NCBI GenBank assembly: GCA_030018915.1
Contig: JASEHE010000004.1
Coordinates: 1-40,322, forward strand
DNA: 40,322 nt
Source: Verrucomicrobiota bacterium
GTDB taxonomy: Bacteria > Verrucomicrobiota > Kiritimatiellia > UBA8416 > SLMC01
Direction: 5' to 3'
In this document: positions 39,237-40,322 of the stretch, in pieces
How positions within the stretch are numbered: position 1 is the stretch's first letter
How the letters are laid out: the number at the start of each line of letters is the position of its first letter
The notes under the pieces: generated by a model
Seen by the model: the letters and a program-made list of their open reading frames with translations, nothing else
Database searches by the model: none
What the model was told of the DNA's origin: nothing
Made by a program: the position numbers and the translations under genes

Positions 39237-39369
39237 CCTCCTTATCCTTGCCTTGATTTCCTTTACGGACCGCTTGGGGCTCGGTACTATTCTCCCAATC
39301 CCAATTTGGCGGCGTTCAGGGTTCAGGTCAATCGTGAACATTGCTCCCGTTGCGCGTTGCGAGGCAATC

Positions 39370-39678
39370 ATGAAAACAAACTACGACGTCATGGTTGCGG
39401 GACACCTGTGTCTGGACATCATCCCGCGCTTCACGGACACGGGCACTCGCCGTTTCGACGAGATTTTCAGGCCCGGCAAACTCGTTTTCATGCGCGGAGT
39501 CGCGATCGGCACTGGCGGGTCGGTTTCCAACACCGGCATCGTGCTGCAGCGGCTGGGCAACCGGGTATGTTTCAGCGCGCGGGTCGGCGACGACGACTTC
39601 GGAAGATTGACCGTTGAAGCGCTCAAGCGGCACGGCTGCGCCGATGGAGTTCGCGCCGTTGAAGGCGCTGACAGGTAA
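39370..39678 (+). pseudogene. PfkB-family carbohydrate kinase, truncated by an IS insertion
   Basis: VAGHLCLDI and GGSVSNTG..LQRLG...VGDDDFG are present. The protein ends after about 100 aa at a TAA supplied by the IS terminus GTAAC. Confidence 0.88.
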
Positions 39679-40269
39679 CTACTCAGCAGGCATCCCGCGG
39701 CGGGATGCCTGCTGAGGTAAAAGGGGCAAGCCCGCGCTGGAGTCATGGGTAAAGATCACGAGGTGTTGACTGCCGGCACGAAGGGGTTGCCGAGGAACAC
39801 ACGCTGCAACGCATCCAACGCGTTGAGTCCGTTTTTGCGGGCGGTGGAGACGTATCCGCGGATGCGACAGAAGTTCACGAGGGCCTCGAAGCTGCGGAAG
39901 GTGCCGGAGATTTTCTGCCGCAGCTTCATCATGCGCAGGTCCGTTTCCGACTGGTTGTTCGTGAATGGGATCGAGAAGTTCCGCATGAAGGCGAGGATGC
40001 CATCGGAGTGGTCGCGGAAGCGGTCAAGGAGGTTGCGGGCCTTGCTCTGCTTGCGGCGGCCCCGCCGTTTCGGGCCGTGTGCCGGAGCGACCGGGTTCTG
40101 CGCATAGCCCGCTTGCACGATGCGCTCGTAGCCCTTGAGGAACCGCTCCTGGTCTGACGGCGGCAGGGCGCTCAGGCCGGCGGCGCGGGCTGTGTCGACA
40201 GCGTTCTTGATGCCCAGCAACTGGTCGATCATGCCCTTGGCCCACCGTTGAGCCTGCTCCTCCCACAGA
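39675..40269 (-). mobile_element. IS66-family element, downstream end with 3' part of the transposase
   Basis: Terminus GTAACTACTCAG at 39675 coincides exactly with the pfkB truncation. The transposase C-terminus lies inside. Confidence 0.88.
39756..40269 (-). pseudogene. IS66-family DDE transposase, C-terminal portion, interrupted at 40270
   Basis: LWEEQAQRWAKGM...KQSKARNLLDR...PFTNNQSETDLRMMKLRQKISGTFRS...FCRIRGYVSTARKNG. The reading frame runs into a second IS terminus. Confidence 0.88.
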
Positions 40270-40322
40270 GTAACTACTCAGGTGCCCGCCCGCAGCGGGC
40301 GCGCACCTGAAGGAATTGGCCC
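40270..40322 (-). mobile_element. Terminus of a second, related IS66-like element nested in the first transposase (runs off the window)
   Basis: A second GTAACTACTCAG at 40270-40281 in the same orientation, followed by a different subterminal palindrome. Confidence 0.75.

Follow-up and report, generated by a model that had tools for sequence, protein, structure and literature searches.

The right-hand end of the window (the whole 40,322-nucleotide stretch that was analysed, which is the entire contig C154 of a 2.1-Mb draft genome in 209 contigs) contains two ends of a massively expanded IS66-family insertion sequence (IS) that resembles the ISBst12 group, and each end carries a subterminal palindrome that is locked in position relative to the tip and whose arms differ in sequence between the two ends while remaining complementary. 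The position-locked palindrome is a character of one clade and not of the IS66 family at large, and palindromic ends are a feature apparently undescribed for IS66-type transposons. We favor, tentatively and with a probability of roughly 0.4, a reading of the sequence comparisons in which the hairpin would act at the DNA level as a cis element of the IS end, in end recognition or synapsis. The comparisons define a widespread environmental IS66 clade with self-complementary, covarying and flipping ends, together with an unstudied DUF4338 gene. To our knowledge, transposition in the IS66 family is poorly understood and its ends have been treated as plain inverted repeats. The original prediction, made from the sequence of the window, noted that such a structure was not known to be described for this family, and a literature search agrees with this, as no description of hairpins or palindromes at IS66 ends was found, judged at the level of abstracts.

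A direct repeat, GTAACTACTCAG, at 39675 and 40270 forms the 12-nt tip of both ends (Table 1), and the arms of both palindromes start within this common terminus. In palindrome A the arms (39682–39698 and 39700–39716) are 17 nt long, 100% complementary and separated by 1 nt, and in palindrome B they are 16 nt long (40278–40293 and 40295–40310) and 94% complementary. Counted from the terminal G, both centers (39699 and 40294) are 24 nt inward. Comparison of the A and B arms shows five stem positions that have changed on both sides (C-G/G-C, A-T/T-A, G-C/C-G, A-T/C-G and T-A/G-C), the uncompensated difference being the one C.C mismatch in B. When folded as single-stranded DNA, end A reaches -23.6 kcal/mol (z -7.0) and end B -16.6 kcal/mol (z -4.1), with 0 of 200 shuffles folding as well in either case. 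The palindromes at the two IS ends are not chance occurrences. All of the features predicted originally were reproduced from the sequence and by repeat search, namely the 17-bp perfect and 16-bp single-mismatch palindromes, the common 24-nt offset of their centers, the overlap of the arms with the terminal repeat, and the compensatory differences between arms; the assignment to IS66 was likewise borne out, by a match of the adjoining open reading frame to PF03050 and of a full-length relative to NF033517.

Table 1. Features at the right-hand end of the window (positions are those of the whole stretch; arms and centers of the palindromes are given in the text).
Feature	Coordinates	Strand	Evidence
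pfkB-family sugar kinase gene, 5' part, interrupted by insertion	39370..39674	+	Pfam PF00294, E 9.7e-07
8-bp target-site duplication (GCTGACAG) of IS copy 1	39667..39674	.	Reverse-complement match to C148 flank
Right end (IRR, type A) of IS copy 1: conserved 12-nt tip and subterminal palindrome	39675..39720	-	
Palindrome A: perfect 17-bp arms, 1 central base	39682..39716	.	Inverted-repeat search
Possible second small hairpin, GGG-CAAGC-CCC region, weak	39723..39733	.	Minimum-energy fold
IS66-family transposase of IS copy 1, C-terminal 170 codons and stop	39756..40269	-	PF03050, E 4.4e-10 (39.9 bits, cut-off 23.1)
Left end (IRL, type B) of IS copy 2, runs off contig	40270..40322	+	Same 12-nt tip
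Palindrome B: 16-bp arms, one C.C mismatch, 1 central base	40278..40310	.	Inverted-repeat search

The 12-nt tip occurs at 50 places in the genome, nearly all of them within ~55 nt of a contig end; 21 copies are type A and 28 are type B, and the remaining one is too short for typing. The assembly is broken into 209 contigs because ~50 contig ends stop in this same IS. In six A/B pairs the 8-nt flanks outside the tips are reverse complements of each other, against a chance expectation of 0.009; the window A end forms one of these pairs with the B end on contig C148. The A end, lying beside the C-terminus of the transposase, is the right end (IRR) and the B end is the left end (IRL) of a single IS that generates 8-bp target duplications, and 8-bp duplications are also present in the relatives L028, L034, L081, L086, L093, and G063. 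The kinase frame ends at 39675 and the other half of the insertion site is on C148; copy 1 of the IS is inside the pfkB gene, and copy 2 is nested within the transposase gene of copy 1, whose reading frame (stop codon at 39756–39758) is cut upstream at 40270. The body of the element is absent from the draft genome, and 595 bp remain between the two ends in the window. On contig C22 a B-type end is followed first by a hairpin (TTGGC-CCCA-GCCAA), then by a C10 run and by the sequence upstream of ORF1. This continuation past the B end matches the layout of relatives L020 and L028. Further C or G runs of at least 9 nt elsewhere in the genome are in unrelated contexts.

The two ends of L028 are nearly identical over 45 bp, which indicates that the common offset reflects a long (~45 bp), diverged terminal inverted repeat (TIR). 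The two position-locked ends that were proposed originally therefore do have a common offset but are not two independent solutions, being the IRR and IRL of one element.

The full structure of the element was taken from G001, a relative from the same family of organisms whose 496-residue transposase is 79% identical to the window fragment, and from 80 loci of other assemblies (80 of 560 relatives). Full-length relatives are ~2.6 kb and consist of the left hairpin end, a run of 8–11 C, ORF1, ORF2, and the right end. ORF2 (496 residues) contains a leucine-zipper-like DUF6444 segment, a zf-IS66 domain, and a DDE_Tnp_IS66 domain, and the G001 product matches PF03050 with an E value of 3.8e-39 and NF033517 with 288 bits (cut-off 180). 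A leucine-zipper domain in IS66 TnpC, as well as beta-clamp binding, has been reported (PMC3971601). ORF1 (291 residues) is a DUF4338/DruA protein (PF14236, E 4.5e-34), DUF4338 having been termed a GNAT-like domain (PMC10853773). It has a weak DruA match in PADLOC (E 0.0057), and Pfam gives DruA/DUF4338 alone; sequence searches gave no NCBIfam or PDB match to ORF1, and no DNA-binding domain was detected in it by Pfam, NCBIfam, or PDB sequence search. The first ~80 residues of ORF1 precede the Pfam domain. Both tnpA and tnpB are absent from the full-length relatives, the upstream DUF4338/DruA ORF being present instead. The closest full-length proxy, L020, is 2638 bp, has a transposase 82% identical to the window fragment, and has a left end almost equal to type B. 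The distance from stop codon to IS tip is about 87 nt and constant in many relatives, and the window IRR lies 81 nt past the stop of the transposase reading frame on the minus strand. The clade was found in PVC-group, Planctomycetota, Chloroflexota, and Acidobacteriota assemblies, and a search of 400 genomes of the phylum identified five further genomes with the transposase.

Members of the IS66 family have terminal inverted repeats beginning with GTAA, and the DDE_Tnp_IS66 transposase, the GTAA tip of both IS ends, and the 8-bp duplication are those of the family. Within it, the element resembles the ISBst12 group but with an added DUF4338 gene. The NF033517/zf-IS66 transposase with a leucine-zipper-like N-terminus is common to both, tnpA and tnpB are missing from the group and from the full-length relatives of the element, and the named Geobacillus elements ISGst1 and ISGka4 (plasmid-borne, cultured) are 39–40% identical. 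ISDge4 of Deinococcus geothermalis, a member of the ISBst12 group of IS66, has the TIR GTAACTGCTCAGCA and transposes with an 8-bp direct repeat (PMC12898284); the tip of the present element, GTAACTRCTCAG, is identical to the TIR published there, and the duplication is 8 bp in both. In contrast, members of the group are ~1.5 kb whereas the present element is ~2.6 kb with the extra upstream DUF4338/DruA-like ORF, and its TIR is ~45 bp with a GC-rich palindrome of 15–17-bp arms at nt 8–42, a structure that the named and cultured relatives examined do not have (ISGst1 has a 7–8-bp stem only, and the Deinococcus copy has none).

To compare ends across elements, a stem was anchored at nt 8 of each end and allowed to close at nt 38–48, its first 14 pairs were scored for Watson-Crick complementarity with a threshold of at least 11 of 14, and elements were grouped by whether their transposase was at least 65% or less than 65% identical to that of G001. 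The hairpin is present in 25 of 31 right ends in the first group, closing at nt 42–45, with seven of the 25 coming from one metagenome-assembled genome and the counts not being phylogenetically independent. Shuffled ends reach the threshold in 0.13% of cases. By the same score the hairpin is present in 0 of 30 right ends of the second group (maximum score 9) and in 0 of 129 unselected metagenomic ends starting with GTAACTACTCAGGT. It is retained down to ~68% transposase identity and across several phyla, with DNA-fold energies of -13 to -24 kcal/mol within the clade versus -2 to -9 kcal/mol elsewhere, and clade members that are decayed or without the hairpin are L025 (decayed), L032, L034, L042, L048, and L073. 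The clade TIR is extended to ~45 bp, of which nt 8–42 are self-complementary, with the conserved inner part of the tip (CTCAGG...) serving as the outer arm and an inverted copy of it (...CCTGAG) as the inner arm. Relatives without the palindrome, or with it at random offsets, had been named at the outset as evidence against a position-locked element, and the wider GTAACTACTCAGG-tip family does lack it (present in 0/30 and 0/129), so that the prediction is in part contradicted, with most right ends of the clade retaining the palindrome.

Two kinds of left end can be distinguished. One has a long palindrome centered on nt 25, as in the window B end, L020, and L028 (nt 22 in L082), and the other has a shorter stem, GGTAGCsCCAyyATGGsGCTACC, centered on nt 23, which persists to 54%-identical copies in the complete genome G063. 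Elsewhere in the family, direct repeats similar to the tip core are present near the tip, for example GGCTGAAGG and GGTTCAnGG, and other members have iterated tip-core-like motifs just inside the tip (e.g. GGCTGAAGGCTGAAGG and GGTTCACGGTTCAAGG). An exact inverted copy of nt 8–13 is present within nt 17–90 of 13 of 126 metagenomic ends, a sevenfold excess over the 1.8 expected, and these inverted copies are at scattered offsets (33–88). Miniature elements of 60–95 bp also occur in the family outside the clade.

An alignment of 35 distinct hairpin-bearing ends, selected for having the hairpin, was examined for covariation. In this alignment 88.5% of the cells are paired, versus 35–46% with slid partners, nine of the 17 stem pairs have changes on both sides, and 64 cells have two-sided changes, versus 5–14 with slid partners. 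The covariation score is 0.300 (0.026–0.073 when slid), a value reached by 0 of 500 shuffles, and RNAalifold recovers the same stem from the alignment. Alignment of further ends, suggested originally as a check for covariation, thus shows a palindrome kept in position with compensatory changes across many elements. There are at least seven stem types (GGTAGCCGCC, GGTAGCCTCC, GGTGGCCTCC, GGTGCGCTCC, GGAGGCATCC, GGATGCrTCC, and GCAGGCATCC), and there is hardly any variation in the outer CTCAGG/CCTGAG and inner CC/GG columns. Within a single element, the left stem is usually unlike the right one (window, L022, L036, L039, and L041), indicating that complementarity is internal to each end and is not that of a shared sequence read by a protein.

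Variation among the copies within the genome is also informative. Twenty-five B ends have the C.C mismatch and a central A. The C22 B end has the majority B core in exact reverse complement (a flip), and in two other B ends the palindrome is perfect, around a central A on C75 and a central T on C196 (arm conversion). Among the A ends, C1 has a central G changed to C (a flip), and four have single C-to-T changes. Flip or conversion variants are therefore found at three of 28 B ends and one A end, a frequency like that of point variants. Flips also distinguish elements from one another, as L019 has a 20-nt core that exactly reverse-complements that of the L038 group, and the loop CAAAGC of L027 and L045 corresponds to GCTTTG in L022. 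The flips and conversions therefore show that intrastrand DNA pairing occurs in vivo, by which the palindrome is inverted and symmetrised, and the ends illustrate cleanly how palindromes flip and convert their arms in nature. The flips support a DNA-level structure, yet they also offer a non-selective route to "compensatory" change. The proposal of a selected structural element thus survives as a conserved and covarying stem, but the covariation does not prove selection, as flips and conversions symmetrise the arms by mutation.

Several known systems have comparable structures. Elements of the IS200/IS605 type have an HUH/Y1 transposase, lack terminal inverted repeats, and make no target duplication. 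The ends described here resemble them in having a hairpin a few nucleotides inside each end, left stems that are usually imperfect, and a stem sequence that varies while the structure stays, but they differ in having a DDE transposase, a 12–45-bp TIR, and an 8-bp duplication, and in a stem that includes the TIR itself. Ends of HUH type were rejected on the DDE transposase, TIRs, and target duplication, there being no evidence of single-strand transposition. Like REP/BIME sequences, the palindromes are GC-rich, 30–35 nt long, and without T-tracts, and the host has several REP-like families; the palindromes here, however, occur only fused to the IS tip and are never free-standing in the genome. 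An origin from REPs was rejected, as the sequences differ from the REP-like families of the host. In quasi-palindrome template switching, and in the flip/flop of parvovirus telomeres, an asymmetric center or mismatch is inverted, or one arm is corrected by the other. Parvovirus flip and flop forms have the 1:1 ratio of hairpin-primed replication whereas flips are rare here (one or two of 28 B ends and one of ~20 A ends), and this rarity fits sporadic mutation and not hairpin-primed replication. Subterminal transposase-binding repeats are found in DDE transposons such as Mu, Tn7, IS21, and hAT/CACTA, and the palindrome can be viewed as one inverted copy of the tip-core motif, although here there is a single inverted copy abutting the tip, with a complementary, GC-rich and covarying interior.

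Under the preferred reading, a DNA-level cis element, the inner arm copies the inner tip in inverted form, such that a snapped-back strand or an extruded cruciform would rebuild the normal end duplex. To a transposase with a leucine-zipper dimerisation domain, the duplex end would present two tip cores related by a dyad, and recognition might take place while the end is single-stranded at a replication fork. Symmetry would be kept by selection on transposition-competent copies together with hairpin-templated correction (template switching), and template switching would give rise to the observed flips and arm conversions. The symmetry reaches the single central base in the window A end, L018, L023, L028, and the left end of L020, and since the innermost pairs are impossible in a hairpin loop, this was counted in favor of the DNA over the RNA level. 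Against a DNA-level role, the wider family transposes without the palindrome, which therefore cannot be indispensable for the chemistry; the two ends of one element do not have the same stem interior, and ~7 nt (CTCAGGT) alone could be a duplicated protein site; some clade members have a decayed hairpin or none; a duplex dyad site needs no palindromic spacer; and flips and conversions also give a purely mutational upkeep of arm complementarity. The ends provide a concrete, mutable cis element for asking whether DNA secondary structure takes part in DDE transposition. A more elaborate version, which we regard as quite improbable, is that ends of the clade are recognised folded and single-stranded, with the hairpin rebuilding the transposase-binding duplex on the lagging-strand template in convergence with HUH elements and integron attC sites, the imperfect left and perfect right stems providing strand or end discrimination, and the DUF4338 protein acting as a clade-specific cofactor.

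It is possible, if doubtful, that the structure acts in RNA, at the right end by stabilising the 3' end of the transposase mRNA or terminating it without a U-tract, or at both ends as an insulator by which transcription into or out of the IS is stopped or paused. The stem of palindrome A is very stable and lies 40 nt past the transposase stop codon, as fits a 3'-UTR position; the constancy of the distance from stop codon to tip in many relatives agrees with this, as does the small TIR-closing stem of the low-GC ISGst1, which is followed by a T-run. Canonical hairpin-plus-T terminators are not enriched in the 63% GC host (15 versus 16.3 in shuffles), in which T-less GC-rich palindromes are plentiful, and flips would be harmless to a pure stem. 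However, neither stem is followed by a T/U tract (the inward sequence is GTAAAAGG or AGGAATTG, and the outward one is TAGTTAC plus flank), and hairpin-plus-T arrangements are not enriched at the ends of the family (IRL 3/44 versus 2.0, IRR 0/58 versus 1.4, metagenome 11/129 versus 6.9). Stem mismatches in the right-end rows are G.T/T.G in nine cases, A.C/C.A in 11, and others in 21, with no wobble bias, such that G.U-compatible mismatches are not preferred to A.C on either strand (9 versus 11). The palindromic symmetry extends into what would be the loop, the left-end stem is ~150 nt upstream of ORF1 and covers no ribosome-binding site, and there is no Rfam 15 match over either palindrome at E values up to 1 (window 39300–40322, L020, and L235). 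The transcript-stem and small-RNA options of the original prediction accordingly fared poorly, for want of a T-tract, a wobble bias, or an Rfam family. An intrinsic terminator was rejected, as there is no T/U tract, the stems are absent from a terminator scan, and the family shows no enrichment.

We consider it unlikely that the palindrome has no selected function and is an ancestral fold-back duplication of nt 8–24, with arms kept alike by intrastrand template switching, even though this process of conversion and flipping is directly visible among the B and A ends of the genome and flips also distinguish elements of different assemblies. The broader family works without the palindrome and several clade members are decayed, which is in keeping with such neutrality, but 25 of 31 right ends keep the palindrome at an unchanged offset, to ~68% transposase identity and in several phyla, and the second, shorter left-end hairpin centered on nt 23 is conserved to 54% identity. 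Even in unrelated family ends the inverted tip core is sevenfold enriched (13/126 versus 1.8), and whereas the stems of L040 and L025 are clearly degraded, those of the multi-copy, recently active element in the window genome are intact. Very improbable, in our estimate, is an operator in duplex DNA bound without folding by a dimeric protein, for which ORF1 or the leucine-zipper transposase are candidates. The palindrome is confined to the clade carrying ORF1, the near-invariance of the outer CTCAGG/CCTGAG and inner CC/GG columns would suit a protein-binding site, and symmetry to the center is typical of operators; yet the middle 7–9 bp of the arms vary between ends and elements while staying complementary, which is unexpected for a sequence-reading dimer, L034, L037, L048, and G063 carry ORF1 without the palindrome, and ORF1 has no DNA-binding domain found by Pfam, NCBIfam, or PDB sequence search.

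The possible second hairpin next to the window A end (Table 1) is weak; small GC-rich hairpins are present at the matching place in relatives.

Roughly 25 copies of the ISBst12-group IS66-family element are present in the 2.1-Mb draft genome (G000), and the element is the main cause of its fragmented assembly. About 50 contig ends break off 50–55 nt into the IS, 21 of them at A (right) ends and 28 at B (left) ends, and the body of the element was binned out of the genome.

Left ends of the element and of several relatives contain a run of 8–11 C residues approximately 85–95 nt inward, on the upstream side of ORF1, with a conserved AAAAAA-N-TTTTTTGCTGGACTC motif after it. Copies and elements differ in the length of this run, and it could therefore modulate expression of ORF1 and the transposase. 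A DUF4338/DruA-family protein regularly accompanies this IS clade as a passenger or cofactor, with no Druantia defence context around it; its similarity to the PADLOC DruA model is weak (E 0.0057), and PMC10853773 assigns a GNAT-like fold to the family. Left ends of the short hairpin type (L016, L041, L047, L100, L225) have an ATG within the loop that starts a mini-ORF of 7–9 codons (e.g. M-A-L-P-L-T-G-x), terminated by the TAG conserved in the ATAGTCTA motif; the mini-ORF may encode a leader peptide or be a coincidence.

Many family members have 2–4 tandem direct repeats of 7–8 nt directly after the conserved 14-nt tip, and these resemble the tip core, yTCAGG. They are probably transposase-binding iterons. 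Three metagenome contigs (L146, L162, L165) contain miniature derivatives of 60–95 bp, consisting of two facing GTAACTACTCAGGT tips with a duplicated target sequence on both sides. The complete genome G063 has three copies of a 54–56%-identical element (L225, L230, L231) whose right end begins GTGAC, not GTAAC, and which has a different long-range inverted repeat (arms of ~17 bp, loop of ~34 nt) starting ~42 nt inward from that end; its target duplication is GAAAGATC.

At least three further families of repeated GC-rich palindromes, REP-like and lacking T-tracts, are found in G000: GAATTTTGCGCGC...GCGCGCAAAATTC, CGCATATTTCACRC...GYGTGAAATATGCG, and CTCACACTTTGCAAAGTGTGAG.

Features of the IS and its relatives (L-numbered loci) and of G000 contigs (C-numbered).
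Feature	Locus	Coordinates
Contigs ending in the IS (examples)	C5, C110, C178, C198	
C run	L235 (G000:C22)	nt 47-56
C run	L014	nt 1-10
C run	left ends of L016, L020, L028, L225	
DUF4338/DruA-family protein	L014	79-954
DUF4338/DruA-family protein	L020	1540-2493
GGCTGAAGG repeats, metagenome ends	such as L124, L132, L140, L167, L180	
GGTTCAnGG repeats, metagenome ends	such as L133, L144, L164, L193	
REP-like palindrome (example)	C125	6343-6375
REP-like palindrome (example)	C129	456-492
REP-like palindrome (example)	C111	11040-11087
REP-like palindrome (example)	C143	4499-4536
REP-like palindrome (example)	C148	11845-11878
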